In this document: piece after piece, positions 7,380-41,899 of the stretch
Layout of the letters: every line of letters begins with the position of its first letter
How positions within the stretch are numbered: the first letter of the stretch is position 1
Program-made: the position numbers and the translations under genes
Assembly: GCA_018664975.1 (NCBI GenBank)
Contig: JABIXH010000296.1
Location: 1 to 41,899, forward strand
Direction of reading: 5' to 3'
Source: Nitrospina sp.
GTDB taxonomy: Bacteria; Nitrospinota; Nitrospinia; Nitrospinales; VA-1
DNA length: 41,899 bases
Notes under the pieces: generated by a model
What the model saw: the letters and a program-made list of their open reading frames with translations, nothing else
What the model was told of the DNA's origin: nothing
The model's database searches: none

Positions 7380-10300
7380 ATGAAATTTAAAATTCTTTCC
7401 TTTAATTGGCACGAACCTTATCTTTGTTTACTCGCAAGACTTGGTTATGAATTCCAAATTATAGAACCTGAAGTTGCTCCCGGTCATTACAGGCGATGGG
7501 ATAAAAATATGCGCCCGGTTCCAGAAAACGTGCGCTTGATTTCAATGGCAACTGCTCAGGAAATGCTGGAACTCGGCGAATTTGATCTCATTATCGCACA
7601 CAATATAAAAGATTTGATAGCCGTTAAGGATTACTCTCTGCCTAAAATTATCGTGTTTCACAACTGTTTAACAACAGAAATTGAACTGGGTAAAGCCAAG
7701 GTTTGTCGGAAAGAGTATTTGGAAAAAATCGATTTTCTTCTGGAGGGCGTACAAAAAGTATTTATCTCGGAGAAAAAGCGCCAAGACTGGGGGGCAAGCG
7801 GAGAAGTAATTTTACCTGGTCTTGATATCTCAGATTATGGTGGCTATAGAGGCGAGAGCGAGAGGGTTTTGCAGGTGGGGAATATGTTGCAAGAACGCGA
7901 TTTGATGATGGGCTATTCAGTCAGTAAAAGAATCATTGGAACCCACCCCTTAACGACTCTTGGTTTAAACCCAAGTATTCCAGGCTCGAGGCTGTCAGAG
8001 GGATTTCAGGACCTGATAGAAAATTTCAGGAGTTCCAGAGTTTTTATTAATACTACCGTTGAAGAGTTTGAGGATGGATACAATTTAAGTATGCTTGAGG
8101 CTATGGCCACTGGAATGCCAGTGATCAGTTCAGCGAATAAATCCTCTCCCATAATAGATGGAAAGAACGGTTATATTTCTAATGACATAAAATATTTAAA
8201 CCAGCGAATTGATTTTCTGTTAAGGAACCCAGATGAAGCCAGAAAGCTGGGGGAAAAAGCAAAAGAAACTGTGAAGGAGAAATTTCCATTAACACGATTT
8301 CTCCAGTCATGGCGCAGGGTGATTGAAAAATCAGCCTTAGACTATTTAGAACGAACGGTGATCAATTTAAAAAATACCAACCAACCTTTTAAGGAAAAAA
8401 TCCGAAAAAATATTTTAATGGATTTTGTGTCCTATCCTGCGACCACCGCCTATTTTCTGGAAAGAGCCTTCAGGCAAAAGCACAATGTAATAACTTGCGG
8501 GTCTCAAATAAACGATCAAATTATTAAACTATGGAATCTTGAAGACCTTAATTGGGAAATCACTCCACAGGATTTATACAGAGGAAACACGACTCCTTTA
8601 CAAAAGGTTATGGAAGAATTGCCAGAAGGGTGGCAACCGGATTTCTACCTTTGGATTGAAACGGGATTGAGTGATATCCCATCAGATCTAGGCAGTTTCG
8701 ATCTGCCGAAGGTTTGCTATCTCATAGATACTCATATCCACTATGAGCGACACCTTGAAATTGCCGAAAATTTTGATTTTGTTTTTTTGGCGCAGAAGGC
8801 GTACGTGCCGCAAATGGTAAGGGCAGGCATTAAGAATGTCATGTGGTTGCCCTTGGCATGTGATCCCGAAATTCATGCCAAGGTTGAGGTTGAAAAAGAA
8901 TTTGATGTGGGCTTTGTCGGTTCAATTTCTTTAACACCAGACCGCCGACGAAATCTTTTGGAGAGACTACAGAAACAGTTTGACCTGAAACCTCAACGAA
9001 AATTCATGAATGAAATGGCGGAGCATTATAGTAAGTCACATATCATTTTTAATAACGCCATTAATAACGATCTTAATATGCGGGTATTCGAGGCTTTATG
9101 TAGCGGCAGTCTGCTGGTTACCGATTCAGCACCAGGAAGTGGTCTGGATGAATTATTTTTGGATAAGAAACATTTAGTGATTTACCAGGATGAGAATCTT
9201 GAAGAAGTGGTTTCTTATTATTTGCAAAATAAAGAACACCGGGAGCGCATCTCAATCGAGGGTAGAAAGGAAGTTTTGGCTCGGCACACTTATGGGCACC
9301 GCACCGATGCCATAATAAAATTTTTAAACGAAAATATCACTGGTGTTGAAAAAGAAAAACCGGCCTCGATGGAGGAAAAACCCATTTCCTATTATGAGAA
9401 TATCAGAAACGATTTGATTCCTCTTGTTCCCAGCGATGCCAATTGTATTTTAGAAATTGGCTGTGGGTCAGGAAGGACTGGTCTGGAACTCAAAAAACAA
9501 TATGGAGCTTTTGTCGCAGGAGTTGAATTGAACCCCGTTGCCGCAAATCTTGCCAATGAGGTATTGGATGATGTGGTTCAGGGAAATATTGAATCCATCG
9601 ACCTGCCTTATGGTTCTGGATCCTTTGACTGCATAATGTTTGCGGACGTTCTAGAGCATTTGGTAGATCCTCTTTCTGTTTTGATGAAAGTACGTCCTTT
9701 ATTGAAATATGGAGGGACTGTGGTAACCAGCATTCCCAATGTCCAATTCCATGGAGTCATTCATCAATTGGTGGAAGGGAATTGGACCTATGAAAAAGAA
9801 GGAATTCTTGATGAAACTCATCTCCGTTTTTTTACCTATAAAGAAATTGGAAAAATGTTTGTTAAAGCGGGTTACTCCATTCAGCATATTGAGGAGGTAA
9901 TAGATCCTCAATATGAACAATTTTCTTTAAGTAATACCAACGTCCTCAATTTTGGCAGGACGCAAATAAAAGATTTATCTCCAGAGGAATTTAAGCAGTT
10001 TTTTGTTTTCCAATATTTATTAAGAGCAAAACCAACTAACGTTAATGAGAATGAGGTAAATGATATGTTTCAAAAGGAAGAAACATTGTTTGAAATTGAC
10101 AACATTTTATTAGACGCGTCCAAGGCCTCTGAAGCAGGGGAGCATGAAACTGCATTAAAACTTTATACGGAAGTTATAAAACTATCTTCTGACAATGTTC
10201 AGGCATTGCTTGGAATGGGTAATACCAATATGAAACTTCAACTTCCTGATAAAGCGGAGGCCTTTTTTGAATTAGCTTGTTTAAAAGATCCCAATAACTC

Positions 10301-10763
10301 CAAGGTTTGGCAAGGGTTGGGATTACTGGCTCTTTATAAAAAAGATATTAAACGTGCAGATATTAGTTTTAATAAATCCCTGGAATGTGACCCCAGGAAC
10401 GATAAGGCATTATGTGGCCTGGGGATGTTGAGGGTTAATAGAGAAGACCTTGATGGGGCTGTTGAATATTTTTGTCGCGCTTTGGAAATTAATCCTGACA
10501 ATATTTCCGCTTGTAAATATCTTTTGGAGTTGTCCTATAAACTGGAAAGATTTGAGGCGATTGAAAGGCATTTAAATATATTCATGGAATTTCATCCCGG
10601 AAATCTCAATATGCTTTTTGCTTTAGCCGGGGTTCAGTACAAACTCGGAAAACTTGAAGAATCGATTAATAACCTGGAATGCATTCTTACCTTGGACCCA
10701 GAACACGAATCGGCAATTGAATTAATTGAAACTGTTAAATCTGATCTAGTTCCTAGTAAATAA
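7380..10763 (+). CDS. 1127-aa four-module protein: GT1/GT4-like glycosyltransferase, CgeB-like (DUF3880/Glyco_trans_1_2) glycosyltransferase, class I SAM methyltransferase and TPR array
   Basis: Module 1 carries EDGYNLSMLEAMATGMPVISS. Module 2 carries FDVGFVGS...DLNMRVFEALCSGSLLVTD. Module 3 carries ILEIGCGSGRTG...FADVLEHLVDP...THLRFFT. The C-terminal 230 aa are TPR repeats. Confidence 0.8.
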   Translation: MKFKILSFNWHEPYLCLLARLGYEFQIIEPEVAPGHYRRWDKNMRPVPENVRLISMATAQEMLELGEFDLIIAHNIKDLIAVKDYSLPKIIVFHNCLTTEIELGKAKVCRKEYLEKIDFLLEGVQKVFISEKKRQDWGASGEVILPGLDISDYGGYRGESERVLQVGNMLQERDLMMGYSVSKRIIGTHPLTTLGLNPSIPGSRLSEGFQDLIENFRSSRVFINTTVEEFEDGYNLSMLEAMATGMPVISSANKSSPIIDGKNGYISNDIKYLNQRIDFLLRNPDEARKLGEKAKETVKEKFPLTRFLQSWRRVIEKSALDYLERTVINLKNTNQPFKEKIRKNILMDFVSYPATTAYFLERAFRQKHNVITCGSQINDQIIKLWNLEDLNWEITPQDLYRGNTTPLQKVMEELPEGWQPDFYLWIETGLSDIPSDLGSFDLPKVCYLIDTHIHYERHLEIAENFDFVFLAQKAYVPQMVRAGIKNVMWLPLACDPEIHAKVEVEKEFDVGFVGSISLTPDRRRNLLERLQKQFDLKPQRKFMNEMAEHYSKSHIIFNNAINNDLNMRVFEALCSGSLLVTDSAPGSGLDELFLDKKHLVIYQDENLEEVVSYYLQNKEHRERISIEGRKEVLARHTYGHRTDAIIKFLNENITGVEKEKPASMEEKPISYYENIRNDLIPLVPSDANCILEIGCGSGRTGLELKKQYGAFVAGVELNPVAANLANEVLDDVVQGNIESIDLPYGSGSFDCIMFADVLEHLVDPLSVLMKVRPLLKYGGTVVTSIPNVQFHGVIHQLVEGNWTYEKEGILDETHLRFFTYKEIGKMFVKAGYSIQHIEEVIDPQYEQFSLSNTNVLNFGRTQIKDLSPEEFKQFFVFQYLLRAKPTNVNENEVNDMFQKEETLFEIDNILLDASKASEAGEHETALKLYTEVIKLSSDNVQALLGMGNTNMKLQLPDKAEAFFELACLKDPNNSKVWQGLGLLALYKKDIKRADISFNKSLECDPRNDKALCGLGMLRVNREDLDGAVEYFCRALEINPDNISACKYLLELSYKLERFEAIERHLNIFMEFHPGNLNMLFALAGVQYKLGKLEESINNLECILTLDPEHESAIELIETVKSDLVPSK

Positions 10764-10772
10764 AATATTCTT

Positions 10773-12566
10773 ATGGATTTTTTTGAGCAAAATTTAAAAC
10801 ATTTACGTCTCTACGACCCCGATCTGGCAGAACGTGTTGCTCTACAGCCTTTTCCTGAGAATGTAAGCGTTATCCAATCAAAAGATGGGTTTCCCGTTCC
10901 CAGAATTGCCGGGGCATTATTGCATAGCCAATACCGCCCGATTGAAGAAGGGAAGAAGGCCATTGAAAAATTCGAGTTTGACCCGGAACAAAAAACAGTT
11001 ATATACGGATTAGGATTTGGTTACCACATCCAGTCTTTACTGCTTAAGTGCCCCGGGAAGTTGATCGTTGTAGAGCCATTGATGACCCTATTCAGGGCAT
11101 TTATGACATCCATGGATATACAGCCTTTTATATCCCGGGTACGCTTTAGGATTGGGGAAACGCCGGCATGCCTTATTTCCCGATTGGAACCGGATTGTTG
11201 GAATATTTTCAAGCATCTTCCCTCCATTAGAATTGGGGAAACCTACTACAACAGGCTGGATGAAGGACTTGAAGTAAGAAACCTCCTTCAACTGCGCTCT
11301 CTCAAAGTGATGATTGTTAACCCCATTTATGGAGGTTCACTGCCAACGGCCCATCATTGTGCTGGAGCTTTCAGGAATTTAGGACATGAGGTTGCTACGG
11401 TAGATTGTGAAGAATTCGCGCAAGGATTTTTTTCTTTAAAGAGTGTGACTCGAAACCCTGATAATTCTGAAATTCTTTCCCGAAATTTTATGAGTTTTAT
11501 GGGTGAAATAGCCGCCGCCAAAGCCGCAGAATTTAAACCGGATATTATTTTGGCACTCGCTCAGGCCCCTCTGGCCCCGGAGGCCATTCAAAAACTTAAG
11601 GCACTGGGAGTTCCAGTCGTTTTCTGGTTCGTGGAAGATTTTAGGACTTTGACTTATTGGGATGAAATAGCCACTTCTTATGACCATCTTTTTACATTGC
11701 AGGCCGGTGAATTCCACGATTCATTAAGATCTAAGGGAGTAAGGGATTGTTATTACCTGCCGCAGGCTTGCTTCCCGGACATTCACAAACCTATAGATGA
11801 GACGGACAGGGATACAGCTAGGTATAAGGCTGATTTATCTTTTATGGGGGCCGCTTATCATAATCGGGTTCAATCTTTTCCACGCCTGATGAATTTTGAC
11901 TTTAAAATTTGGGGAACAGGTTGGAATTTAGAAACACCGTTGGGACGCTTAGTTCAAAATAATAATGAACGATTGTCTACAACTGAAATAGTTAATATTT
12001 ATAATGGAGCCAAAATAAACCTCAACCTGCATTCTTCTACCTATCATTATGGCATTAATCCTGATGGAGATTTTTTGAACCCACGCACTTTTGAAATTTC
12101 TGCTTGTCAAGGATTCCAACTGGTGGATTCTCGTAAAGATTTATCGCGAATGTTTAAAGTTGGTGAGGAGGTAATCACGTTTGATACGCTTGATCAAATG
12201 CGGGATCAAATCGAATATTATCTTTCTAATCCTGAGGAAAGAAATACAATTGCTTTAAAATCCTACCACCGAGTTCTGAATGAACATACCATGGAACATC
12301 GTATGCAGGAGTTATTGCTACATGTTTTTCTGGATCGCAAATCGGCTCTTGATTCCATCAGAGATACTCAATGTGATCCTCTAGATTATTGCATTGAACA
12401 AGCTGGTGAAAATTCTGAATTGGGAAAATATTTGAATCAGTTTAAGGGCCAAGTCCCATTTTCTTTAAAGACGGTGATTGATCATATCCATCAGGGAGAG
12501 GGAGCTCTGGATCAAAAGGAGACTCTTTTTTTGATGTTGGATCAGATTGTAAAGGAGAAAGTTTGA
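10773..12566 (+). CDS. Maf-like N-terminal module fused to a CgeB-like (DUF3880/Glyco_trans_1_2) glycosyltransferase
   Basis: The N-terminus (FFEQNLKHLRLYDPDLAERV...VIYGLGFGYHIQSLL...LIVVEP) resembles motility-accessory-factor/DUF115 proteins. The C-terminal half (DLSFMGAAY, YNGAKINLNLHS, NPRTFEISACQGFQLVD) resembles CgeB-type GTs. Confidence 0.65.
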   Translation: MDFFEQNLKHLRLYDPDLAERVALQPFPENVSVIQSKDGFPVPRIAGALLHSQYRPIEEGKKAIEKFEFDPEQKTVIYGLGFGYHIQSLLLKCPGKLIVVEPLMTLFRAFMTSMDIQPFISRVRFRIGETPACLISRLEPDCWNIFKHLPSIRIGETYYNRLDEGLEVRNLLQLRSLKVMIVNPIYGGSLPTAHHCAGAFRNLGHEVATVDCEEFAQGFFSLKSVTRNPDNSEILSRNFMSFMGEIAAAKAAEFKPDIILALAQAPLAPEAIQKLKALGVPVVFWFVEDFRTLTYWDEIATSYDHLFTLQAGEFHDSLRSKGVRDCYYLPQACFPDIHKPIDETDRDTARYKADLSFMGAAYHNRVQSFPRLMNFDFKIWGTGWNLETPLGRLVQNNNERLSTTEIVNIYNGAKINLNLHSSTYHYGINPDGDFLNPRTFEISACQGFQLVDSRKDLSRMFKVGEEVITFDTLDQMRDQIEYYLSNPEERNTIALKSYHRVLNEHTMEHRMQELLLHVFLDRKSALDSIRDTQCDPLDYCIEQAGENSELGKYLNQFKGQVPFSLKTVIDHIHQGEGALDQKETLFLMLDQIVKEKV

Positions 12567-14314
12567 TCGTGGCTAAAAATATATTAATTCTAAGTATGAC
12601 CCGAATGGGAGATATGATTCAGACAACTCCCCTGATTAAGGGTTTGAAAGAAAAATATCCCTCAGCCAAGATCACTCTTTTGGTCACCAGTGATTTTTCC
12701 AGTGCCGTGTCTCTGATACCTGAGGTCGATGAATCTATAGTTGTGAATTTGAGACAGTTTGATAATCAAGAAGTTTGGGAAGACCTTTCCTGGATTAAAA
12801 TATACCGTTATCTTGAAGATACATTGGGAGATATTAAAGGTAGAAGTTTTGATTTGCTAGTAAATTTAAGCCATTCAAAATTCAGTGCCCTTATGGTTCG
12901 TTATTTGGGAGCTAAAAATATAGTTGGCTTTTATTGTAACGATTTTGGAAATCGTATGACAGGCCACCCTTGGATGCAGTATTTCAGTGTAGAAATATTC
13001 AATCGTAACTATAATGAGTTTAATCTTGTTGAGATATTTTCAAGGAGTGGAGGTGTTGATGCAAAGGGTCGTTCCATTGCTGTGACCCCCTCGCACGATG
13101 AACTTTCACTTGGTACCTTAATTCCGCCTGAGTTCAATGAAGGCGAGGTCTTGATTGGTATTCAAGCCGGATCCAGTCTGGAAGGTCGGCGGTGGCCCGT
13201 GCAATCATTTGCGGCATTGGCTGATCAGTTAATAGAAAATATTAATGCGCGAATATTGATATTTGGTGTGGAGTCTGAAAATGCAGTGGCTGAAGATGTA
13301 TTAAGTTTTGTTGAAAATAAGGATAAGGTCGTAAACCTTGCCGGCAAAACAACCCTCAGTCAGTTATCGGGATTGTTGGAAAAATGCCAATATTTAGTCA
13401 CTAATGATACCGGAACGATGCATTTGGCTGCGGCCTTGGGAACTAAAATCGTAGGACTCTTTTTTGCCCATGCGCATCCGTATGAAACGGCACCATTTTC
13501 TCCGGGGCATTTGATATTCCAGGCAAGAATTTCTTGTGCACCCTGTAGTTATGGAGTGCACTGCAACAATATAGTTTGTATTGACAAGGTAAACCCCCAA
13601 GACCTTTCTTCGGTGATTGAGAGTCATATAATAACTAAATCATGGGTTCTTCCTGAGCAAGTTAATACAAAATCTGAATTAAACGTATATGAAACCGTTT
13701 TTGATTTTGATGATAATTTCCAATTACGGCCTCTTGTAAAGCACAGGTTACAAATAGATGATATGTTCCGGACGGCCTATACCCTTTTGTGGAGGAATAG
13801 TCTTGACGAAAAAATGAAGGCAAATGATTTCGAATTCCTCATAAATGGGGTTTGCGAAAACTTGAATCGTGATTATGATTGTACTGATATAGATTCGGTG
13901 GATGAACAATTAGAAAAAAAATATTTAGCTTTAGAGGAGATTGTGAAACTTGCATTTAAAGGAAGGAAGCAATGTGGGAACCTCATCAGAGAAGTTTCTG
14001 GTATAAAGGGGAGTCCAGACAAAATTGCTCAGTCTAGTGCTGAAATTACACGCATTGATGAGAAGATTGAAGAATTGGGGCTTACTAACCCCGAATTGCG
14101 TCCTTTATCTGATATGTTCAGTAAAAGAAAAGAAAATTTTGCAGGTAACAATGTTTGTCTTTTGGCTATTGAAACCCGGAAGGAATACAATAATTTGATC
14201 GATGAATGTGAAAAGCTGAGTACTATTTTAAATAGTTGTCGGAAAAAATTGACGGGCACCAAGCCTTGCTATATTTCGCATGATTCCATTAATGTGGCGG
14301 TTCCCGGTAGGTAG
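12563..14314 (+). CDS. glycosyltransferase family 9 (heptosyltransferase-like) with a C-terminal extension of about 230 aa
   Basis: GT9 hallmarks: ILILSMTRMGDMIQTTPLIKGLKEKYP near the N-terminus and TNDTGTMHLAAALGTKIVGLF. The listed TTG start overlaps the upstream stop, and GTG at 12569 is an alternative. Confidence 0.8.
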   Translation: MIVAKNILILSMTRMGDMIQTTPLIKGLKEKYPSAKITLLVTSDFSSAVSLIPEVDESIVVNLRQFDNQEVWEDLSWIKIYRYLEDTLGDIKGRSFDLLVNLSHSKFSALMVRYLGAKNIVGFYCNDFGNRMTGHPWMQYFSVEIFNRNYNEFNLVEIFSRSGGVDAKGRSIAVTPSHDELSLGTLIPPEFNEGEVLIGIQAGSSLEGRRWPVQSFAALADQLIENINARILIFGVESENAVAEDVLSFVENKDKVVNLAGKTTLSQLSGLLEKCQYLVTNDTGTMHLAAALGTKIVGLFFAHAHPYETAPFSPGHLIFQARISCAPCSYGVHCNNIVCIDKVNPQDLSSVIESHIITKSWVLPEQVNTKSELNVYETVFDFDDNFQLRPLVKHRLQIDDMFRTAYTLLWRNSLDEKMKANDFEFLINGVCENLNRDYDCTDIDSVDEQLEKKYLALEEIVKLAFKGRKQCGNLIREVSGIKGSPDKIAQSSAEITRIDEKIEELGLTNPELRPLSDMFSKRKENFAGNNVCLLAIETRKEYNNLIDECEKLSTILNSCRKKLTGTKPCYISHDSINVAVPGR

Positions 14315-18359: not shown

Positions 18360-19094
18360 TCATCCGACAGATTTAGCACAACGAAAACCGGTGTCCCAGT
18401 ATCGCATTTGAGGAGGGGAAAAATTTCGGTAAGGTAGCATTGTGAACTGTTTTAAAAACCCGTGTTCACGTTTATTAATTGAACCGCCACGGGTCACCTT
18501 GAATTTCTCCCCAAAGTTATTATCTTGCAGAATGGAGTTGGGGTAGGGTTTGTACCAGCTTGCGGTCCATTCCGAAACATTTCCATTCATTCCCCATATA
18601 CGATAGGTGCTGACATCTCCCTCAAGGGCGTTTACCGGTTGTACTTGTTTGCCGAAATTAGCAGTGCCCTTTTCGAAATCGTTGCCCCATACGAAAAGTC
18701 GGTTGTCACTCCCTCGGGCCGCTTTTTCCCATTCATACTCTAACGGCAGACGCTTACCTGCCCAAAGACAATAGGCATCGGCTTCGTACCAACTGATTCC
18801 GCTGACTGGTAAGTTCATTTGCTGAACAGGGTATTGTGCCTGGGGTTTAAACTTCATAAACTCCTCATAGGTGACCTCAAACTGGTCTATATAAAAGGCC
18901 TTCAATAAATATTGTTGCTCCGGTTGTGCATTGAGGGCAGATGTTTTTTCCGACATGAATTGCAGGATTTTACTCTCGGGATTGAGACCCAATGTGAATT
19001 CGCCTTCAGGAATGAGGACCATCCCTATTTGTTTCTGGGCTTCGCAAGAAACAAAGAGTATTGATAGGAGTGCAATCAGGAGTATTCTATTCAA
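18360..19094 (-). CDS. FGE-sulfatase (SUMF1/EgtB/PvdO) domain lipoprotein lacking the FGE catalytic Cys pair
   Basis: Lipobox-like signal (LLSILFVSCEA). Family motifs FYIDQFEVTYEEF, SEWTASW, TRGGS, GFRCA. Its stop lies 3 nt from the convergent rne stop. Confidence 0.85.
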   Translation of the reverse strand: MNRILLIALLSILFVSCEAQKQIGMVLIPEGEFTLGLNPESKILQFMSEKTSALNAQPEQQYLLKAFYIDQFEVTYEEFMKFKPQAQYPVQQMNLPVSGISWYEADAYCLWAGKRLPLEYEWEKAARGSDNRLFVWGNDFEKGTANFGKQVQPVNALEGDVSTYRIWGMNGNVSEWTASWYKPYPNSILQDNNFGEKFKVTRGGSINKREHGFLKQFTMLPYRNFSPPQMRYWDTGFRCAKSVG

Positions 19095-33597: not shown

Positions 33598-34350
33598 ATG
33601 TCTTCAGTTTTCGATTCTCAGGCTTTTAATGCCAATCTCTTTTTTCCTAGAGGTGATACAGGGTCCACTCCGGATAATTGCGATGAAATTCAGGTAAAAG
33701 TTGCACCGGAAACATCTATCCATGTACGTCGGCATCCATCCTCCGAAGCACGATTCAGTTTATTATTTTTTCATGGTAATGGAGAGATTGTATCGGACTA
33801 CGATAATTTCGCGGAAATTTTTAATTCAATGGGGGCTGAATTGGTCATTGCTGATTTTCGTGGTTATGGAAGGAGTACAGGGTCCCCCACTCTCAGGGCT
33901 AGCCTTGAAGACGCGCACAAAATTTATGATGAACTTAAATCAAATGGTAAGTTAAAAGAAAAAGTCTGTATTATGGGCCGTTCTCTTGGCAGTGCGCCGA
34001 CTCTGGAGCTTTGCGCCAAACGTTCTGATGTCGCAGGATGTGTTCTAGAAAGCGGTTATGCAGACCCCATTCCACTGGTAGAAAGGCGCGGATTGAAAAT
34101 TGATAAAACCACGCCTGATGAAGATGAGGTTTTTAATAACAGCCAGAAGATTCGTTCAGTAAAATGCCCACTTCTTATCATGCATGGCTCCGACGATTTT
34201 TTGATATCACCCCATGAAGCCAAGTTGAATTATGATAATGCCGGGTCTAAATTAAAACATCTTGAAATATTGGAAGGGGTAGGGCACAACGATATGATGA
34301 TGAACCCTTCCTATTTTTCTACCTTAAAACAGTTTTTTGATTCTTTGTGA
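33598..34350 (+). CDS. alpha/beta-fold hydrolase
   Basis: FFHGNGE oxyanion region, nucleophile elbow GRSLGS, late HG.DD and GHND segments. 250 aa. Confidence 0.75.
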   Translation: MSSVFDSQAFNANLFFPRGDTGSTPDNCDEIQVKVAPETSIHVRRHPSSEARFSLLFFHGNGEIVSDYDNFAEIFNSMGAELVIADFRGYGRSTGSPTLRASLEDAHKIYDELKSNGKLKEKVCIMGRSLGSAPTLELCAKRSDVAGCVLESGYADPIPLVERRGLKIDKTTPDEDEVFNNSQKIRSVKCPLLIMHGSDDFLISPHEAKLNYDNAGSKLKHLEILEGVGHNDMMMNPSYFSTLKQFFDSL

Positions 34351-34363
34351 CAGGGAGTTTATT

Positions 34364-35560
34364 TTGAAAAAATTTTATAATATTGAAGGTTTGATTCGGA
34401 GCGGATTTAAATTAAGCCGTGACTATGAAACCCTCGATTTTACTTTTGCCAAATTCGGTGATGATGCAGTGCGAGAAATGGTTAAATCGCGCTCCATTAA
34501 ACAGGTACGCAGACTGACCATCAATGGAAAAAAGTTGACCGCAGTATCGGCGCAGGCATTGGCGGGTTCTGACAAGCTACCTAATCTGGAATCCTTGAAA
34601 TTGTATAAAAACAAAATAGGGGATGAAGGAGTAAAATATATAGCCGAATCTGATCGACTTCCAAATCTCAAATCCCTGCGATTAGCTTGGAATGAGATAG
34701 GTCCCGAAGGAGTTCGTAATCTGGCTGAATCCACTCACTTGGGAAACTTGACTTCCCTGACACTATCAGAAAATCAAATCGGTGATGAAGGGTTGAAATA
34801 TCTGGCTGAATCCAAATCCCTGAGCAGTCTGGAGATTATTGATCTCAGGAAAAACCAGATTACCGATGCCGGAGCCGTTGCATTGTCTAAAAGTAAAAGC
34901 CTGCCTAAACTGCAATCCATCGACCTTACTGATAACGCATTAACGGTGAAAGGAAAGGATGCCCTGGCCGAGTTTAAAGTTTTTAATCTTATTCGCGCAC
35001 GACTCAGTGAAGATGGCAACAAACTGGATCTCAGTAATCTGGGTATTGGAGATGTTGAGTGCAAGTGTATTGCTGAATGCGAAGATTTGATGGACTTGAC
35101 CCATCTATATCTGGAACTGAATAAAATCACAGAGAAAGGCATTGCTCACCTTGCAAGCAGTGAATATTTGAAAAATGTTACCCTTCTTTCTCTCGATCGC
35201 AACAAAATTGGAGATGAGGGTTTTATTCATATCATTAAGTCAGAAACCTTGCAGAATATTCAGGTGCTGATGGTCGAAAATGCTGGCATTACAGACGAAG
35301 GCATCAATGTAATTTGTGAAGAAGAATGCATGAAAAATCTGCTCCGCTTGTATATTGAAGAAAACGATACCACTGAAGAGGGGCTGGAGCTACTGGCCGA
35401 GCCGGAGCATTTGCAACAACTTGAATACCCAGAATTTGACCGCGAAGAAGAAATAGAAGAAGAGGAAGAGGACGAAGAAGAATTCGAAGATGTCGAAGAC
35501 ATCGAGGAAATTGAGGAAGAAGAAGACCTCGATGATGATACAGAATATGAAAATCAATAG
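34364..35560 (+). CDS. RNI-type leucine-rich repeat protein with poly-acidic C-terminal tail
   Basis: Repeats of the form LAES..L.NL.SL.L..N.IGDEG.KY. The tail is EEEIEEEEEDEEEFEDVEDIEEIEEEEDLDDD. The ORF track starts at TTG 34337, overlapping the hydrolase. I prefer TTG 34364, which lies 6 nt after AGGGAG. Confidence 0.75.
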   Translation: MKKFYNIEGLIRSGFKLSRDYETLDFTFAKFGDDAVREMVKSRSIKQVRRLTINGKKLTAVSAQALAGSDKLPNLESLKLYKNKIGDEGVKYIAESDRLPNLKSLRLAWNEIGPEGVRNLAESTHLGNLTSLTLSENQIGDEGLKYLAESKSLSSLEIIDLRKNQITDAGAVALSKSKSLPKLQSIDLTDNALTVKGKDALAEFKVFNLIRARLSEDGNKLDLSNLGIGDVECKCIAECEDLMDLTHLYLELNKITEKGIAHLASSEYLKNVTLLSLDRNKIGDEGFIHIIKSETLQNIQVLMVENAGITDEGINVICEEECMKNLLRLYIEENDTTEEGLELLAEPEHLQQLEYPEFDREEEIEEEEEDEEEFEDVEDIEEIEEEEDLDDDTEYENQ

Positions 35561-35649: not shown

Positions 35650-35681
35650 CAAAAAACTAATCTTAACTATAGTGGTATAAT
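35650..35681 (+). promoter_or_regulatory. candidate sigma70-type promoter with extended -10 (TGgTATAAT) for the VWA/CsgG cluster
   Basis: TG at 35673-35674 and TATAAT at 35676-35681, about 65 nt upstream of ATG 35747. The -35 region is weak (aaaact). Confidence 0.35.
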
Positions 35682-35746
35682 AGATTTCATCAAATAGAAT
35701 CATCCAAATAAATCGGCATTAAAGCATCCTCTTGAGGAGAATTTCG

Positions 35747-37228
35747 ATGTATGGTCGATTCTTGATTTATTTGTTCTCTTTTTTAACTCTCCTTTTTACT
35801 TCTGAACCTTCTTGGGCGGAAAAAAGCCAGGAAATCGAAATCATTGTGGACGGTTCCGGCAGTATGGCTGGAAAAATGGAAGGTTCCACTAAGCTTGCCA
35901 TCGCCAAGCAATCCCTCGCTAAAATTGTCAACGAAATACCCCCGGGTTCCCAAGTCGCTCTCAGGGTCTATGGTCAGAATTTCTCTGTCGATGAAAAAGA
36001 ACAGAGCTGTCAGGATTCTGAATTAATTTATCCCATGGGGCCAATCGATAGCGAAGTTCTTACTCAAAAAATCCAATCGATAAAAGCTAAAGCTTACACC
36101 CCAATTGCGTTCAGCCTTGCCGAAGCTGGGAAAGATTTCTTAGCCAAGGACAACAGGTTTATTATGCTGGTTAGTGATGGTATAGAGACATGTGGTGGGG
36201 ATCCATGCCAGGTGGCCAGGGATATTCAGACTACGGGAGCTCCTCTTGTTATTCATAGCATAGGGTTCGATGTTGATGAAAAAGCCCGAGAGCAGTTAGT
36301 TTGTATTGCAGAAGTTTCTGGAGGGAAATATTTTGACGCAAAAGACGCAAAGGGCCTTTTCACATCCCTCCAAACGATTGCCAAACAGGAATTGAAACCG
36401 GTGGAACCTATGACTCAGGCCGAACTGCCTCTTGAGGAACCCCAAAACGAGGAGCCTAAATTTTTGGCGCCTCCCAAAAAGACACGTTTCGGTGAATGGA
36501 TTCGCGGAGGGCGCTATTATGAGGATGCGATCCCGCTCAAACCCGGAAAATACCGTATTGATCATGATTTGCGGCAGGGGGAATATGATTACTTCAAAAT
36601 CAGCCTTAACAATGGGCAAAAGCTTCGCATTCAATATACCACTCAGGACGAAGGAAGTGGTTGTGCTGGTGCGGCGATACATTCCAAGGATCGTCTCAAA
36701 TTGTTAAGCAATTATATTGTTTATAAAAGCTCGACCGGAGAAACAGATCTGGAGGTGTTTGATTTGGAAAAGGCTCCCGTAGAATTCTATGTGCTTATCG
36801 GGAGTACCTGTCAGGGCGTTCAAAGTAAAGATACTATGTTGGATATTTTTATAGAAGACCGTTTTGATGGCGGGAGTGGTCAGGAGGCAGGCCCCAAACT
36901 GAAAAAACCGTTACCTATTAAACCAGGGAAACATGAAGAGAACTGGTTACAGCTCAAGTCTGATGTAGACACTTTTGTAGTCACGGGTAAGCCTGGCAAG
37001 GAATTGCACGTGAAGGTTTTACCAGAAAGTGAAATCGCTACATTAAAATTCTCTCTCTACAATGAAGACCGGGAAAGATTGCTTTATGCTCAGGCCAAAA
37101 ATAATGGTGCGGTAGTAAAAGGTAAGGTCTTGGTGAGTGAGGACTATCCGGAAATTTATATTCAAGTTTCTGGTTTTAACGCTACAAAATATAGTTTAAA
37201 AATTCAAAGTCGGGAACCAAAGAAGTGA
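35747..37228 (+). CDS. secreted von Willebrand factor A (VWA) domain protein with two C-terminal PPC-like beta-domains
   Basis: ATG 35747 lies 7 nt after GAGGAG (the track lists TTG 35732). Signal peptide ends ...SEPSWA/EK. MIDAS motif DGSGSM. Two similar C-terminal segments (IPLKPGKYRIDHDL..GEYDYFKISL and LPIKPGKHEENWLQL.SDVDTFVVTG). Confidence 0.8.
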   Translation: MYGRFLIYLFSFLTLLFTSEPSWAEKSQEIEIIVDGSGSMAGKMEGSTKLAIAKQSLAKIVNEIPPGSQVALRVYGQNFSVDEKEQSCQDSELIYPMGPIDSEVLTQKIQSIKAKAYTPIAFSLAEAGKDFLAKDNRFIMLVSDGIETCGGDPCQVARDIQTTGAPLVIHSIGFDVDEKAREQLVCIAEVSGGKYFDAKDAKGLFTSLQTIAKQELKPVEPMTQAELPLEEPQNEEPKFLAPPKKTRFGEWIRGGRYYEDAIPLKPGKYRIDHDLRQGEYDYFKISLNNGQKLRIQYTTQDEGSGCAGAAIHSKDRLKLLSNYIVYKSSTGETDLEVFDLEKAPVEFYVLIGSTCQGVQSKDTMLDIFIEDRFDGGSGQEAGPKLKKPLPIKPGKHEENWLQLKSDVDTFVVTGKPGKELHVKVLPESEIATLKFSLYNEDRERLLYAQAKNNGAVVKGKVLVSEDYPEIYIQVSGFNATKYSLKIQSREPKK

Positions 37229-37247
37229 TTTGGGAAAGGTTAACAGG

Positions 37248-37874
37248 ATGAAGCTATTAAATTGCTTACTTGCTTTTTGGTTGATTTCAGGATGCATTAC
37301 ACCTCCTCTTTTGGCACAAGAAAGTTCGGGATTATCTCCTCAAACAAAGCCTGTTGTCATGATAATGATCAATGAGCAAATCTGGGTCGAAAATCAGGTT
37401 ATTTATGACTATTACGGCAACTTGTCTAAAGTAATGAATATATGGACTAGCGTTTCCCAGGCGGATACCACATTTACAAGTGCATTTCTTGAAAAGGGGT
37501 TCAAAGTGATAGGTAGCGGGGTACCAAATACCACCAAAGGAAAGGTGAGTCGGGACGATATGTTGAAAGCCATGGAAGGAGATGACCTGACCTCTACTTA
37601 TCTGGGGAATTATTTAAAGGCAGATCTGGTTATCGTGGGTCAGGTGGTGGCACGCGGTGTGACGCCATTGAGTAATTCTAGACAAAAATCTGCACGGGCC
37701 AACCTTAATGTAAGAGCTGTGCGAGTGGATACAGGTGAAATAATTGCTGTAGCTAGTGGGCAAGGCACTGCGGCGGCCATTGATGAAATAAGTGCCGGAG
37801 TAGACGCCATTAAGAGGGCCACTAAAGTTACTGCGGAGAAACTCGTTAGTACGATAATTGATAAAGTTCCATGA
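37248..37874 (+). CDS. lipoprotein with a CsgG/LpoB-like N-domain pattern, unknown function
   Basis: Lipobox LISGC. The segment KADLVIVGQVV...ANLNVRAVRVDTGEIIAVASGQG mimics the CsgG-family core pattern. An alternative TTG start lies at 37230. Confidence 0.55.
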   Translation: MKLLNCLLAFWLISGCITPPLLAQESSGLSPQTKPVVMIMINEQIWVENQVIYDYYGNLSKVMNIWTSVSQADTTFTSAFLEKGFKVIGSGVPNTTKGKVSRDDMLKAMEGDDLTSTYLGNYLKADLVIVGQVVARGVTPLSNSRQKSARANLNVRAVRVDTGEIIAVASGQGTAAAIDEISAGVDAIKRATKVTAEKLVSTIIDKVP

Positions 37875-37930
37875 ATAAACTTTGTATATCCTGGTTGAAC
37901 TTTTGAAATCTATTTTTGAGGAGCGGTATC

Positions 37931-38833
37931 GTGAAAAAACCGGCTAAAAAAACTCAATTAATTCTCGCTTTAACACTGGTATCTTCCTTTTTGTGGATAC
38001 CAGTATCTTATTCCGAAGAATTCAAAAAAACCATTGCTGTATCCAGATTTGATGTTCGGGTGGGAAAGTCAACCCTTGGAGAAGGAATGTCGGACATGCT
38101 GGCCGATTCGCTTATTCAAAGCGGAAGTTTTGTGGTACTGGAGCGTCAGACACTGGAGGACATCATCACCGAGCAGGATCTTGCTGCAAGCGGTAGAGCC
38201 GCAGTATCGAAATCTGCTCAGACTGGCAAATTAATTCCCTCCCAGATCTTGATCAAGGGAACGGTCACCGAATTCGATGAAAAAACCGAAAGCAGTGGCA
38301 CCGGGATTGGATTTGGTGGGTTCAACATTGGTTCCAGTTCCACTGCGGCTCATGTGGCGGTTATTTTAAGAATTATCGATACTACTTCGGCAGAGGTTCT
38401 CGACTCCATCAGGGTGGAAGGCAAGGCAGAAGGAAGTGGGCTCAAGTTGGGAGGTTCCATTGCAGGTATTAGTTTGGGGACGGAAGGTTTTTCAAAGACG
38501 CCGTTAGGAAAAGCTACTCAGATTGCTATTGACAACGCAGTAGAAAAAATTGTTGCTCGTTTGCAAACGATTCCCTTTTCCGGAAAAATCATCAAGGTTT
38601 CGGGAGACACCATTTATACCAATCTGGGAGGGAGAAATGGTGTGTCGGTGGGGGATCTTTTTAATGTTTACAATCCCGGCGAGTCATTGATTGACCCTGA
38701 CACGGGAGAAAACCTGGGTTCCGAAAAAACCAAAACCGGGTCCTTAAAAATCAATTCGGTTCAGGAAAAATTTTCCAAAGCCAGCGCAGAAACAGGAGAA
38801 CTTTTTGAAAAAGGATTTCAACTGACAGAATAA
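37931..38833 (+). CDS. CsgG-family (curli production assembly/transport component-like) protein with an extra C-terminal beta-domain and no cysteine
   Basis: GTG 37931 lies 7 nt after GAGGAG (the track lists TTG 37916). CsgG-like core: IAVSRFDVRVGK...GMSDMLADSLIQSGSFVVLERQTLEDIITEQDL, QILIKGTVTEFDE, AHVAVILRIIDTTSAEVL. The signal peptide has no lipobox. Confidence 0.8.
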   Translation: MKKPAKKTQLILALTLVSSFLWIPVSYSEEFKKTIAVSRFDVRVGKSTLGEGMSDMLADSLIQSGSFVVLERQTLEDIITEQDLAASGRAAVSKSAQTGKLIPSQILIKGTVTEFDEKTESSGTGIGFGGFNIGSSSTAAHVAVILRIIDTTSAEVLDSIRVEGKAEGSGLKLGGSIAGISLGTEGFSKTPLGKATQIAIDNAVEKIVARLQTIPFSGKIIKVSGDTIYTNLGGRNGVSVGDLFNVYNPGESLIDPDTGENLGSEKTKTGSLKINSVQEKFSKASAETGELFEKGFQLTE

Positions 38834-38845
38834 AAGGAGTATGTC

Positions 38846-39067
38846 ATGAAACATGCTTGGAGATATTTTTCACTCCTATTGCTACTGATTTTTTCTTTTT
38901 CCGGTTGCGCCTCGATGAATGAGCCTCTGGATTCTGCCAATGAGAGTGCCGAGGAAATAGGAAAACCTGTGGGGAAAATTATGAAGATACCCGGATCGGC
39001 TACAAAAGGAGCCGCTGAAGGCATGCATACAAAAGAGAACGACCCTAATAATCCTTATGACAGATAG
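38846..39067 (+). CDS. 73-aa mini-lipoprotein
   Basis: AAGGAG 7 nt upstream of the ATG. Lipobox-like FSFSGC after a hydrophobic signal. The mature part is short and hydrophilic. Confidence 0.6.
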   Translation: MKHAWRYFSLLLLLIFSFSGCASMNEPLDSANESAEEIGKPVGKIMKIPGSATKGAAEGMHTKENDPNNPYDR

Positions 39068-39157
39068 CTGAAAAAAAAACTAACTATTCCAAAAAATAGC
39101 TGGTTGATTGTGAAATAGGGGATCGTTTATAAAGCCCCTGGAAGGATTTTTGAACGC

Positions 39158-41899
39158 ATGCAAGCCAGATTTTCATTTCATTTTCTTTTATATAAAACAT
39201 CCCAAAGTTTGCTCCATCGCCTGCCATTAAACATTCATAGCCGGAAGAAACCGATCCTTTGGAGTAGCTTTTTAATTCTATCCGTTATCCTTTTTACCCC
39301 CTTCCTAGATCGTTCTGCTCATGCCGATATCAGGGCGGATATTAAAATGGCGCGGGAAGCGGTGGCCACTGCGGAAAAGAATTTAAATGCCGCAGAGCGG
39401 AGGATAATTTCTTTTGCCAATGGAGAATTAACTTCTGCAAGAAATAGGTTTCGGGAAGCAGAGGAGAATTGGAAGAAATTCCGCAGAAAAATAAATGAAA
39501 AGGAACTTCAACTAAAAATAGAGTCTGAAAAAAATCGACTGGATCTGGAAAATGTATTTAAGCAAAAGAAAAAGTTTTCAAGCAAGTCAGAAACTTTTAG
39601 GAAATTGGAGAAAGAAATAAGGCGTTTGATTGGGGAAGCGGAAAATATAACCGCAAGAAAAAAGAAATTAGTCGATGTTGAGATAAAAAACGATCTGACT
39701 ATTTTTAACGAGTATGTTGCGGCAGATTCTGACCTGTCCGCAGTAGCGTCTGATTTCAGAGAGGTCATAAAGGCTCGGGAAAGAGTTTTTTCACTTTTGA
39801 CCCGCGTAAAGGATAATCTGTTTCAACTCAGAAAAGATGCTCCAAGCCTGCTGGAATATGAGGCCCCTCCGTTTTTGAAAACTGTCGAAGCTGTTAAGGA
39901 CGAAATCCAATTTTATTATCATCAATGGGTGCCGATCGAAGTTGAAGAATTAGAAAAAGAAATTAGTGTCGTCCAGAATTTATTGTCTCAAAATATCTCA
40001 AATCGAGACGAACTTTTTTCCCAAAAAAAGGAAGCATTTAACAAATATTTTGAAGCTGGAATTTTATTAAGAGGTACTGAGAAAAACCTGATTAATGTAG
40101 TGGAAAGTATTTTCTGGTATGACCTTTGGCTGGATTTTTCTGATAAGACCATGGATATTATTTTGGATGCTCGAAAGGTTGGGCCGGCGGCTGCTATCAT
40201 AAGTGCTGCTGGAGGAGAGCTTTTGGACCTTGGTATTAGTACCATCTTCCCCGGCGAAAAATCTCAATTGTATGACATTTCTGAATTTACGAGTTGGCAG
40301 ATAAAAAAGCCAGCAGGTAAAAATCAGCAGTCTCTTGGGAAAGTAGCCTGGGATACTTCTAAGGATCTTTTAAATAGTAAGGGGAAGGGGGTTGTCAAAG
40401 GAGTAATTACAGAATTTATCGAAGGAATCAGCCCCAGCGAGAAACTATTGAATACAAATATCCTGGAATTACATTCAGCGGTATTGGAAGAAGTCTGGCC
40501 TCAAGCCAAAGCAACTGAAGGTTTTTTAGATAGGTTAAACGATGCTAATAAATTAAAAGATATTTCAGGCTTCACCAAAAAAGGGGCTCTGAGTTTTGGG
40601 ACAAATTTCATAAAAAAGAAAAATATCGATTTTGCTAAAGAAGAAATGAAAAAAGTTATTGTTAATTCGCATCCTGACTTTTTGGAATACCTTGATAAAA
40701 GGGCGACCTTTGTTTTCACAGGCATGCAAAACCGGTATTTCGCCAATCAACTAGATGTGGTAAACGTCGAGATTACAGCTCTTGATGAAGTTTTGAACGA
40801 CCTTCTTGATGAACTGGATGGAAAACGATTTAAGAGAAACCTAGACGAAGACAAATTTGCTAGGAATATCGATAAGGAATCGGTCAACCTAACCCTGACT
40901 TTTAGTTCAGACATTGATGATGTCAAAGTTGCGGTTGATGGAAGGCGCCTTAAAGGTTCTGTTGCAGGAAATATATGGACAGGTTCATTGAATAACACAA
41001 TAGCCTTAGATGCTAACCTATCAATCTTTGGCGTAGATAAAGTTTCACGAAAACAGCTGGATGGGGATCCTGAAACAATTGCCCGGTTAGATTTGAGTTC
41101 AGATGAAAACTCTGAGTTCATAGGCTATGAAGAAAGAAGCGATATTACTCACACTCTGAATTTTGGGGAACCAGATACGCAAGAGTTAGCTGGATCAGGC
41201 GAATGCATAGATAGTATCACCTTTAAGAAGACGGTTAGGGCTATTGGTGATGCAGGTTTCGAATCCGTTGACGTTGATCCCTCTCAGAGAGCGCCTGATC
41301 CTCCTCCCTTGAATCATCATTATAGCCAACCCCACCGCATAGGTTCTCCGTTTACCCTGCACGGATGGGGATACAATCTTGCGCTCAATTATTATTACTT
41401 CGATCTCGCAAACGATGCCCTATTGTATGAGCCTAATGTTTGGAAGGAAGGGCATAGCGGTGTTGTGGATGTGGAGCGTCTCTCTACCAGGGATTCATCC
41501 CAGTTTCCGGGACTGAAAGTGGTCTCGTTTAAAAAAAGGCCCTGCCTCTGTATTAAGACGATGGAGTTAAGAAATTTCGTCAGGAATAAAGACGAAAATG
41601 AGATTCCCGTAAAGGTGCGACTTAAAAAGGATTCTGAGGGAATAGCATTAGATGAAAGACAGAGTTTCAGATTCCGGGGTGCGGCCAAATGTCTGAAACT
41701 TTCCTCCAGCGGGAAAAATCTTAAGGATGAAGATGCGGAAACTGGTGAAATTTGTGGCAAAGACTTGTATAGACCTCGGTATAAAAACTTGTCGGGTTTA
41801 TCCATTGGCAAATATAGTTTGGGAGATTGTTCTACCGGGCCGAATACCTATTCATTACAACTTTTAGAAGAGCCGGTTTTTAAAGAAAGAATCGATATC
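39158..41899 (+). CDS. large secreted coiled-coil protein (at least 914 aa, 3'-truncated by the window); absent from the supplied ORF track
   Basis: Hand translation from ATG 39158 runs without a stop to nt 41899 (2742 nt, exactly 914 codons). In-frame TAG at 39116-39118 upstream. Signal-like N-terminus (ILWSSFLILSVILFTPFLDRSAHA/DI), about 250 aa of K/E/R-rich heptad-like sequence, then mixed domains with clustered Cys near the end. The listed minus-strand ORFs here are S/F-rich antisense artefacts. Confidence 0.7.
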   Translation, partial: MQARFSFHFLLYKTSQSLLHRLPLNIHSRKKPILWSSFLILSVILFTPFLDRSAHADIRADIKMAREAVATAEKNLNAAERRIISFANGELTSARNRFREAEENWKKFRRKINEKELQLKIESEKNRLDLENVFKQKKKFSSKSETFRKLEKEIRRLIGEAENITARKKKLVDVEIKNDLTIFNEYVAADSDLSAVASDFREVIKARERVFSLLTRVKDNLFQLRKDAPSLLEYEAPPFLKTVEAVKDEIQFYYHQWVPIEVEELEKEISVVQNLLSQNISNRDELFSQKKEAFNKYFEAGILLRGTEKNLINVVESIFWYDLWLDFSDKTMDIILDARKVGPAAAIISAAGGELLDLGISTIFPGEKSQLYDISEFTSWQIKKPAGKNQQSLGKVAWDTSKDLLNSKGKGVVKGVITEFIEGISPSEKLLNTNILELHSAVLEEVWPQAKATEGFLDRLNDANKLKDISGFTKKGALSFGTNFIKKKNIDFAKEEMKKVIVNSHPDFLEYLDKRATFVFTGMQNRYFANQLDVVNVEITALDEVLNDLLDELDGKRFKRNLDEDKFARNIDKESVNLTLTFSSDIDDVKVAVDGRRLKGSVAGNIWTGSLNNTIALDANLSIFGVDKVSRKQLDGDPETIARLDLSSDENSEFIGYEERSDITHTLNFGEPDTQELAGSGECIDSITFKKTVRAIGDAGFESVDVDPSQRAPDPPPLNHHYSQPHRIGSPFTLHGWGYNLALNYYYFDLANDALLYEPNVWKEGHSGVVDVERLSTRDSSQFPGLKVVSFKKRPCLCIKTMELRNFVRNKDENEIPVKVRLKKDSEGIALDERQSFRFRGAAKCLKLSSSGKNLKDEDAETGEICGKDLYRPRYKNLSGLSIGKYSLGDCSTGPNTYSLQLLEEPVFKERIDI

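Follow-up and report, generated by a model that had tools for sequence, protein, structure and literature searches.

At the right end of a 41,899-nt stretch of DNA from Nitrospina sp. (assembly GCA_018664975.1, contig JABIXH010000296.1), here called the window, five closely packed open reading frames (ORFs) occupy the plus strand from 35.7 kb to the window end, and our analysis concerns the CsgG-family protein encoded there, CsgG*, together with its neighbors. The five genes encode a VWA protein of 493 aa (35747–37228; the alternative TTG start at 35732 gives a 498-aa ORF), a 208-aa protein of the CsgG superfold, lip208 (37248–37874), the 300-aa CsgG* (37931–38833), a mini-lipoprotein of 73 aa, s73 (38846–39067), and a large protein, client 1, of which the first 914 of 1115 aa lie within the window (39158–41899, the window end). 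An initial annotation of the window had described five same-strand genes about 12–90 nt apart, each with a secretion leader, and both statements hold: the gaps are 19, 56, 12, and 90 nt, and all five products begin with N-terminal signal-type leaders. It had also advised recovering the rest of the truncated last gene and its downstream neighbors, and an exact-match look-up of s73 led to a contig on which this could be done (JABIIF010000121.1, GCA_018649235.1; locus L001, other loci being numbered likewise), which differs from the window by 1 mismatch in the 900 aligned bases compared. There, the last gene is complete with 1115 aa and is followed, 40 nt further 3′ and outside the window, by a sixth same-strand gene for a protein of 230 aa, client 2 (L001 13701–14393), after which come two opposite-strand genes and then a gene of the metallo-beta-lactamase fold. 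Client 1 and client 2 are similar only across their last 80 aa, where both carry a bipartite sequence tag. The cassette formed by these genes suggests an uncharacterized outer-membrane export or anchoring machine.

CsgG* matches the Pfam family CsgG (PF03783) at aa 51–217 (nt 38066–38566) with 134 bits against a cut-off of 20.8, and this domain is followed by an FlgT_C domain (nt 38603–38791; 29 bits, cut-off 27). The FlgT_M profile gives 14.7 bits, below its cut-off of 31.2, and FlgT_N is not matched. The start used by gene callers is a GTG that lies 15 nt inside a 305-aa ORF, and the mature protein has about 272 aa, compared with 354 aa for FlgT. CsgG* contains no cysteine at all and therefore has no lipid anchor of its own; the earlier description as a Cys-less CsgG homologue was thus correct, and the profile match that it proposed to check lies above the cut-off, with two hairpins equivalent to TM1 and TM2 of CsgG. 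In a search of 5.8 billion proteins, we found 853 relatives, of which the best 120 are more than 50% identical to CsgG*. The named relatives come from Nitrospinota, Omnitrophota, Planctomycetota, Thermodesulfobacteriota, Nitrospirota, Verrucomicrobiota, and Poribacteria, and the named best matches to both CsgG* and lip208 from metagenome-assembled genomes (MAGs) of Nitrospinota (Nitrospinae). A signal-peptidase-I-type leader without a lipobox is found in about 92% of the 114 homologues with complete leaders, and in about nine of the 114, a long linker comes after a lipobox. Both types stand in tandem in a groundwater Nitrospinota MAG (L011 3901–4920 and 4941–5924), the first with a signal-peptidase-I-type leader and the second with the lipobox LLGC before a linker of about 40 aa, and a single s73 gene follows the two.

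With CsgG of Escherichia coli, CsgG* shares the PF03783 domain, a TM1 hairpin of equal length, a second amphipathic hairpin, and the location in a small operon of secreted envelope proteins, but it lacks the lipobox cysteine, the long constriction loop with Y51/N55/F56, and the CsgA, CsgB, CsgE, and CsgF partners; moreover, it has the additional C-terminal FlgT_C domain, and its clients are large, non-amyloid, and differently tagged. HfaB of the Caulobacter holdfast is likewise a non-curli member of the CsgG family, which is thought to export and anchor the co-encoded HfaA and HfaD, but HfaB is a lipoprotein and CsgG* is not, and CsgG* has no HfaA- or HfaD-like neighbors. Membership in the Pfam CsgG family could speak for a divergent curli or holdfast-type system, in which CsgG* would secrete a nearby amyloid or anchor protein as CsgG does with CsgA and HfaB with HfaA and HfaD. 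We regard this as very improbable, as CsgG* reaches only 32 bits with the NCBIfam curli CsgG equivalog PRK15184, which has a cut-off of 505, and 16.6 bits with the HfaB model NF037935, which has a cut-off of 300. None of the cluster proteins or clients scanned matches the Pfam families Curlin repeat, CsgE, or CsgF, none of these was recorded downstream on L001, and the cluster encodes no Q/N-rich repeat protein, so the initial annotation was justified in reading the locus as a non-curli cluster around a CsgG-family protein. Only 26% of the PF03783 proteins lie in curli loci, the rest being uncharacterized paralogues (Dueholm et al., PMC3521004).

The closest companion of CsgG* is s73, whose predicted nature as a 73-aa lipoprotein could be confirmed. 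It has the lipobox FSG↓C, a mature peptide of about 53 aa, and a C-terminal NPxxR, and its homologues have 63–75 aa, with a signal peptide and then a cysteine in every sequence listed. Their consensus is C-x-x-x-N-x-G-A...G-K-x-x-[RK]-[VI]-P-x-S-x-x-E-G-A-A-x-G...N-P-[YF]-x-R. The protein belongs to no Pfam family, is unrelated to FlgP and FlgO, and has no detectable relationship to the tag of the clients. A single-sequence search of 1.84 billion representatives gave 28 matches, a number that does not indicate the family size because the query is too short. We also considered whether s73 provides a lipid anchor in trans as a strict rule, and we rejected this, as there is only a trend: among loci in which CsgG* has no lipobox, 45 have s73 and 19 do not, and among those with a lipobox, 7 have it and 10 do not.

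For the analysis of synteny, genome and contig searches provided 83 loci, and the window proteins were scored against the ORFs called in them; apart from the Marinobacterium homologues (L063, L064), every member came from MAGs or metagenomes. The gene order proved to be conserved in related genomes, as the initial annotation had proposed to check: in L011, a VWA protein, lip208, CsgG*, s73, and a large secreted protein follow each other in this order, and L089 and L090 contain all six genes. The notion of a five-gene unit was only partly borne out, however, since s73 is the only widely conserved partner of CsgG*, and the unit is really a layered assembly. The first layer is the core pair, in which an s73 homologue directly follows CsgG* on the same strand; it occurs in 44 of the 83 loci and in about seven phyla, these loci are essentially the ones whose CsgG* is more than about 50% identical to the query, and three independent look-ups agree. 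The second layer is a narrow cassette of lip208, CsgG*, s73, and a client in Nitrospinota, Omnitrophota, and Planctomycetota, with lip208 directly 5′ of CsgG* in Nitrospinota, Omnitrophota, and one Planctomycetales MAG. Searching metagenomes for lip208 yielded 13 additional loci, in which the order was unchanged wherever the contig allowed it to be read, and two more look-ups agree. Every cassette locus of sufficient length has s73 after CsgG*, and the full order lip208, CsgG*, s73, and tag-bearing protein is present in every locus long enough to show it (the cassette-order loci are L001, L006, L010, L011, L013, L014, L089–L095, L098–L100, L104, and L105). The third layer, confined to Nitrospinota, is the VWA protein.

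Other recurrent neighbors of CsgG*, beyond generic response regulators and kinases, were not found in these loci. In a Verrucomicrobiia locus (L009 8001–10012) and about seven similar ones, CsgG* is followed by a 67-aa lipoprotein, a CsgG-domain–PEGA fusion, and then a TolC-like OEP gene. Ser/Thr protein kinases recur beside distant CsgG–FlgT_C homologues (L082 7827–9803, minus strand, and about 10 other distant loci), and their extracytoplasmic C-terminus has, by eye, a CsgG/TolB_N-type look. FGE-sulfatase genes, of which the window contains two paralogues (2942–3721, and 18360–19094 on the minus strand), also lie near the CsgG*–s73 pair in L008, which is probably a coincidence.

The second CsgG-fold protein of the cassette, lip208, had been annotated as a CsgG-like half-size lipoprotein. 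The fold could be verified: the Pfam CsgG profile gives a partial match of 24.4 bits, the AlphaFold model (pLDDT 84.5) has the alpha/beta fold of the CsgG/FlgT_M/PelC/LptE type with a polar hairpin at the position equivalent to the hairpin of CsgG*, and a Foldseek search with this model found FlgT, the pre-pore form of CsgG, PelC, HpaA, and LptE-like proteins with a TMq of about 0.4. A FlgT_C domain is absent, and a PDB sequence search with lip208 gave no usable matches. The lipoprotein label, in contrast, is doubtful because most family members have no lipobox; lip208 itself has ISG↓C, but only about 2–3 of 30 aligned relatives do, and the family conserves a signal-peptidase-I site, PxxA↓xE. 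With 43 clusters, the family is small. In comparison with outer-membrane lipoproteins of the PelC, LptE, PqiC, and GNA1162 types, several of which assemble into rings and direct cargo to a separate barrel, the lip208 model matches the folds (TMq about 0.35–0.45), but there is no sequence-family match, the lip208 proteins are mostly not lipoproteins, and no partner of the PelB, LptD, or MCE type is encoded here. The initial annotation had left room for a match to a described CsgG-type lipoprotein operon. For the GNA1162/DUF799-type operon with its CsgG-like lipoprotein, we take the partners to be of the DUF799, DUF4810, or LPP20 families, and such a match was not obtained: neither lip208 nor s73 matches these families in Pfam, and only a generic fold likeness to 4hrv was seen (TMq 0.36). 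In one Omnitrophota MAG (GCA_016932855.1), the lip208 homologue (L103 9001–9606) adjoins genes for an 82-aa Gly-rich lipoprotein and a GIY-YIG protein, and the CsgG*–s73 pair is on another contig (L015).

The tag that is shared by the clients has the form F/W-x-[DE]-x-[IV]P-x-[LIVF]P-x-Y, followed by 10–35 residues rich in Pro, Gly, Ser, Thr, and Glu, and then PM[IV]xxxLxxx[IF][KR]xxPR. In every cassette locus that extends far enough, the gene directly after s73 carries it, with E-values of 1e-10 to 1e-28 in a search with a hidden Markov model (HMM) of the tag, and no comparable match was obtained elsewhere among about 10,000 ORFs. Client 1 is recognized with E = 9e-25, client 2 is also tagged, and the 42-kb window contains no further copy. 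When the tag alignment was searched against an index of 5.8 billion proteins, nothing was returned, which is no measure of the genome-wide distribution of the tag. The position of the tag varies, being C-terminal in client 1 and client 2 and 50–260 residues from the N-terminus in other loci, but Pro/Ser/Thr-rich linkers always flank it. In the literature searched, neither the CsgG* subfamily, nor the cassette, nor the mini-lipoprotein is described, and the bipartite tag is previously undescribed as well. Mature CsgA begins with GVVPQYGGG (E. coli csgA, L102 5448–5903), and the first tag half, [IV]P-x-x-P-x-Y-G, is loosely similar to it; this likeness, to which no statistics are attached, is no more than a lead, and it counts as a further point for the curli- or holdfast-type explanation. 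The stretch of CsgA in question is part of the N-terminal region that is reported to direct the protein to CsgG.

The tag carriers are otherwise unrelated proteins. Client 1 consists of a signal or anchor sequence, a helical, coiled-coil-like region (about aa 55–300), a mixed region, and, beyond the window, 190 C-terminal residues that comprise a Pro/Ser/Thr-rich linker of about 140 aa and the conserved tag end; it has no Pfam match and no usable PDB sequence match. The initial annotation had called it a secreted coiled-coil protein of at least 914 aa, of which the secretion leader and the large size stand and the coiled-coil character applies only to the region mentioned. Client 2 is Cys-rich. 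In L011, L014, L094, L104, and L105, the clients are proteins of 1400–1757 aa that end in a metzincin-type HExxHxxGxxH motif, another carrier is a protein of 533 aa, and in L012 a caspase-domain protein has a marginal match to the second tag half only (HMM E = 0.47). Pfam recognizes little in the clients apart from the one caspase domain and a sub-threshold Reprolysin_3 match.

Two lineages have disrupted client genes. The apparent signal peptide of the 533-aa gene contains an in-frame TAG (L006 at about 9395–9446, and the same site in L010 and L091; …ITPLILL*PPSVWAFFCGPQN), which is identical in three independent assemblies and may reflect a pseudogene, a phase variant, or recoding. In the other lineage, the break in the giant metzincin-type client falls exactly within the tag (L105 5599–5889 and 5889–10688; L098 and L099 3223–3516): an ORF of 96–97 aa ends with …AVPKIPKYKD*, and the next one starts with MDKIRSTPRTP, with a 1-nt overlap (TAATG), whereas the client is intact in L100 and L104. 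A conserved secreted protein of about 420 aa without a Pfam family follows the metzincin-type client in L104 (7613–8890) and L105 (10702–11967) and may extend the cassette of that lineage by one more member.

Wherever the cassette is linked, lip208 and a tag-bearing gene co-occur without exception, and CsgG*–s73 pairs without lip208 have no tagged neighbor, which points to lip208 as the putative client-specific component and a candidate adaptor or second ring of the cassette. This co-occurrence also bears on the possibility that the CsgG*–s73 pair acts in the envelope in a general way, for example as an outer membrane–peptidoglycan tether or an LpoB-like regulator, in which case the neighboring genes would be co-located envelope genes without encoding substrates, and the tag would serve another purpose, such as membrane or peptidoglycan binding or processing. 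The pair indeed stands beside unrelated genes without a tagged neighbor in many phyla, many family members have weak LpoB and TolB_N profile matches, and Nitrospinales genomes encode several CsgG* paralogues. Against such a role, however, lip208 and the tag-bearing gene are found together in a fixed order in three phyla and on many metagenome contigs, and the tag is carried by unrelated proteins and yet, among the sequences searched, occurs only at the position after s73. We consider such a general function improbable.

Our preferred reading, which we hold tentatively and would call possible rather than probable, is that the cluster serves a type-VIII-like, tag-directed export and anchoring of proteins through a CsgG-like outer-membrane ring. 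From the domain content, the layered synteny, the tag, and its co-occurrence with lip208, we infer the following course of events. CsgG*, with its two amphipathic hairpins and its FlgT_C beta-domain, would be the core ring subunit of the cassette, oligomerizing at the inner face of the outer membrane and inserting into it, and s73 would either tether this ring, supplying its lipid anchor, or complete it. As a second ring or adaptor, lip208 would connect the ring to clients, in keeping with its presence only where clients are encoded. The complex would recognize the bipartite tag on the protein or proteins encoded directly downstream, which in the Nitrospina cluster would be the 1115-aa protein and the Cys-rich 230-aa protein. 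Most likely, the tag would remain bound in or under the ring while the linker threads the CsgG-like channel, so that the client's functional part would be displayed or released at the cell surface. A precedent for the docking of a peptide in such a ring is the binding of CsgF to CsgG, as given in the titles of the PDB entries 6l7a and 6si7. The initial annotation had named the coiled-coil protein or the VWA protein as the possible cargo or surface fiber; the former is a plausible client owing to its tag, and the latter is untagged, confined to Nitrospinota, and variable in position.

We favor the channel because CsgG* is near to CsgG in sequence and equals it in the length of TM1, because the hydrophobic hairpin tips are conserved across phyla, and because the clients resemble surface proteins. 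When the CsgG* family profile was compared with PDB sequences, CsgG was matched with E = 7e-11, the TM1 hairpin being free of gaps. Hairpin 1 of CsgG* (aa 118–140, nt 38282–38350 on the plus strand), which aligns gap-free with TM1 of E. coli CsgG, has conserved alternating hydrophobic residues at positions 126, 128, 131, and 133 in an alignment of 121 sequences, and in hairpin 2 (aa 166–190, nt 38426–38500 on the plus strand), the equivalent of TM2, hydrophobic residues alternate at positions 171, 173, 175, 177, 180, and 182 in the same number of sequences.

Several observations weigh against a channel. Hairpin 2 is about 5 aa shorter than in E. coli CsgG, and the returning strand of hairpin 1 is rich in Lys, Arg, and Glu where CsgG has Tyr and Leu, so that the hydrophobic belt seems thinner than a bilayer; the constriction loop is 7–10 aa shorter than that of E. 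coli CsgG and has no equivalent of YPASNF (Tyr51/Asn55/Phe56); and in the AlphaFold monomer (pLDDT 72), the hairpin tips have a pLDDT below 50. CsgG* is unlipidated, and non-lipidated CsgG was crystallized in a pre-pore conformation, according to the title of PDB entry 4uv2. The occurrence of the tag near either end of a client is at least as compatible with docking as with vectorial secretion, in other phyla most CsgG*–s73 pairs lack a tagged neighbor, and in the Omnitrophota MAG mentioned above, the only exception to the linkage, lip208 is separated from the core pair. Finally, the best full-length fold match of the CsgG* model is not CsgG, which is matched with a TMq of 0.33–0.39 (E = 2e-8), but FlgT (3w1e and 8z5n, TMq 0.60–0.68 over 293 columns, E = 1e-16).

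FlgT forms a periplasmic ring in the Vibrio flagellar H-ring that is not a pore, and its FlgT_C domain is a docking scaffold. Like CsgG*, it combines a CsgG-like middle domain with FlgT_C, is unlipidated, and is paired with small outer-membrane lipoproteins, FlgP and FlgO. The Foldseek matches to 3w1e and 8z5n, together with the FlgT_C score above the cut-off, indeed give CsgG* the FlgT_M plus FlgT_C fold. CsgG* could thus be a FlgT-like periplasmic scaffold without a channel, a ring held by s73 as FlgT is held by FlgP and FlgO, at which the tag would dock periplasmic clients such as proteases and the coiled-coil protein, with no passage across the membrane. The pairing of an unlipidated CsgG* with a small lipoprotein, the position of the tag near either end of the client, the shortened and partly charged hairpins, and the missing constriction loop all fit such a scaffold, and a homologue from the cultured Marinobacterium jannaschii, a true lipoprotein, exceeds the FlgT_M cut-off (32.3 versus 31.2 bits). 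The role of FlgT_C as a docking module is also known from TsaP, whose FlgT_C-type beta-domains make a peripheral ring on an outer-membrane channel, forming spokes on the PilQ secretin (bioRxiv 10.1101/2020.05.29.123786), and the C-terminal domain of the CsgG* family matched TsaP chains among the PDB sequences (E = 5e-9 and 3e-6); unlike CsgG*, TsaP has a LysM domain, lacks a CsgG domain, and works with a secretin. Nevertheless, we consider the scaffold, which is the main rival of the channel, rather unlikely. CsgG* lacks FlgT_N, and in sequence it is far nearer to CsgG, whose profile gives 134 bits, than to FlgT_M with its sub-threshold 14.7 bits. The hydrophobic alternation of the hairpin tips is kept across phyla, and the clients, with giant metzincin-like enzymes and long Pro/Ser/Thr-rich stalks among them, look like surface or secreted proteins. 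Moreover, no flagellar families were found among the 27 window proteins scanned or in the Pfam annotation of genes at the syntenic loci, and the Pfam scans of the window proteins revealed no flagellar or secretin partner nearby. Given the CsgG-like sequence, the FlgT-like fold, and the M. jannaschii homologue above the FlgT_M cut-off, the CsgG* subfamily takes a place between CsgG, a pore, and FlgT, whose ring lies in the periplasm and is tethered there by two lipoproteins, FlgP and FlgO.

The VWA protein at the 5′ end of the cluster contains the predicted MIDAS: the VWA domain (nt 35834–36355) scores 31.3 bits in Pfam with a cut-off of 23.8, and the D-G-S-G-S motif, which agrees with the DxSxS metal-site pattern, lies at 35849–35863 on the plus strand (IIVDGSGSMAG in the translation; aa 40–44 of the 498-aa ORF). 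Its C-terminal half (36482–37225, plus strand) had been assigned two PPC-like domains. Two weakly related domains of about 120 aa are indeed present (36482–36862 and 36863–37225), and the two represent a weak internal duplication (pairwise BLASTP E = 2e-5, 22% identity over 67 aa), but the PPC label was rejected, as PF04151 matched only 20 residues with E = 0.094 and 14 bits, the cut-off being 25.9. A PDB sequence search with the protein gave no usable matches. All homologues found belong to Nitrospinota or Nitrospinota-like loci, where the gene lies 5′ of the cassette in L001, L011, L089, and L090 and 3′ of it in L006, L010, and L091, and the tag HMM has no match in the protein. Since it lacks the tag, is limited to these loci, and changes its position, the VWA protein is, as judged from its sequence and genomic context, a Nitrospinota-specific accessory and not the defining cargo.

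On the 5′ side, the cluster is preceded by genes for a leucine-rich-repeat protein, an alpha/beta hydrolase, and an aconitase. The directly adjoining leucine-rich-repeat protein (34337–35560) is of the LRR_6 type, as is a second one at 3724–4452, and has a highly acidic C-terminal tail (EEIEEEEEDEEEFEDVEDIEE…); conserved copies exist in L089 and L090, and none was detected in L011. The remaining window contains ordinary chromosomal genes, among them those for PGK, RNase G, FtsEX, M23 and S41 peptidases, TsaD, and glycosyltransferases. Positions 7380–10763 encode a 1127-aa fusion of two glycosyltransferase modules with a methyltransferase domain and TPR repeats, followed by two further glycosyltransferase genes (10773–14314). 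A scan for promoters and terminators was uninformative, as the counts equaled the shuffled expectation.

About three quarters of the Pfam CsgG-family proteins are found outside curli loci, and their function is essentially unknown (PMC3521004). The present work delimits a large and strongly conserved subfamily of them, CsgG*, with more than 50% identity between phyla, together with its small lipoprotein partner and a narrower cassette with tagged clients, and the role of non-curli CsgG proteins thereby becomes experimentally approachable through tag binding, client localization, and multimer structure. If the ring is a scaffold, it would be a non-flagellar relative of the FlgT/FlgP/FlgO assembly and would inform the evolution of the flagellar H-ring. 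If it is a channel, it would represent a new tag-directed export route in phyla that are poorly cultured yet environmentally important, including the marine nitrite oxidizers of the Nitrospinota as well as the Omnitrophota, and a pore without the CsgG constriction loop might also be of interest as a nanopore. In its broadest form, to which we give a reasonable though less than even chance, the proposal would be that of a putative, hitherto unrecognized protein-sorting system of diderm bacteria in which CsgG*, lip208, and a mature lipopeptide of about 50 aa build an outer-membrane translocon or anchor that reads a portable tag and displays diverse large proteins on the surface, with a CsgG*–s73 core that would be ancestral and shared by at least seven phyla. 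If this were true, the surface cargo of Nitrospinota, Omnitrophota, and Planctomycetota would include giant metzincin-like proteases, a caspase-domain protein, and coiled-coil or adhesin-like proteins.

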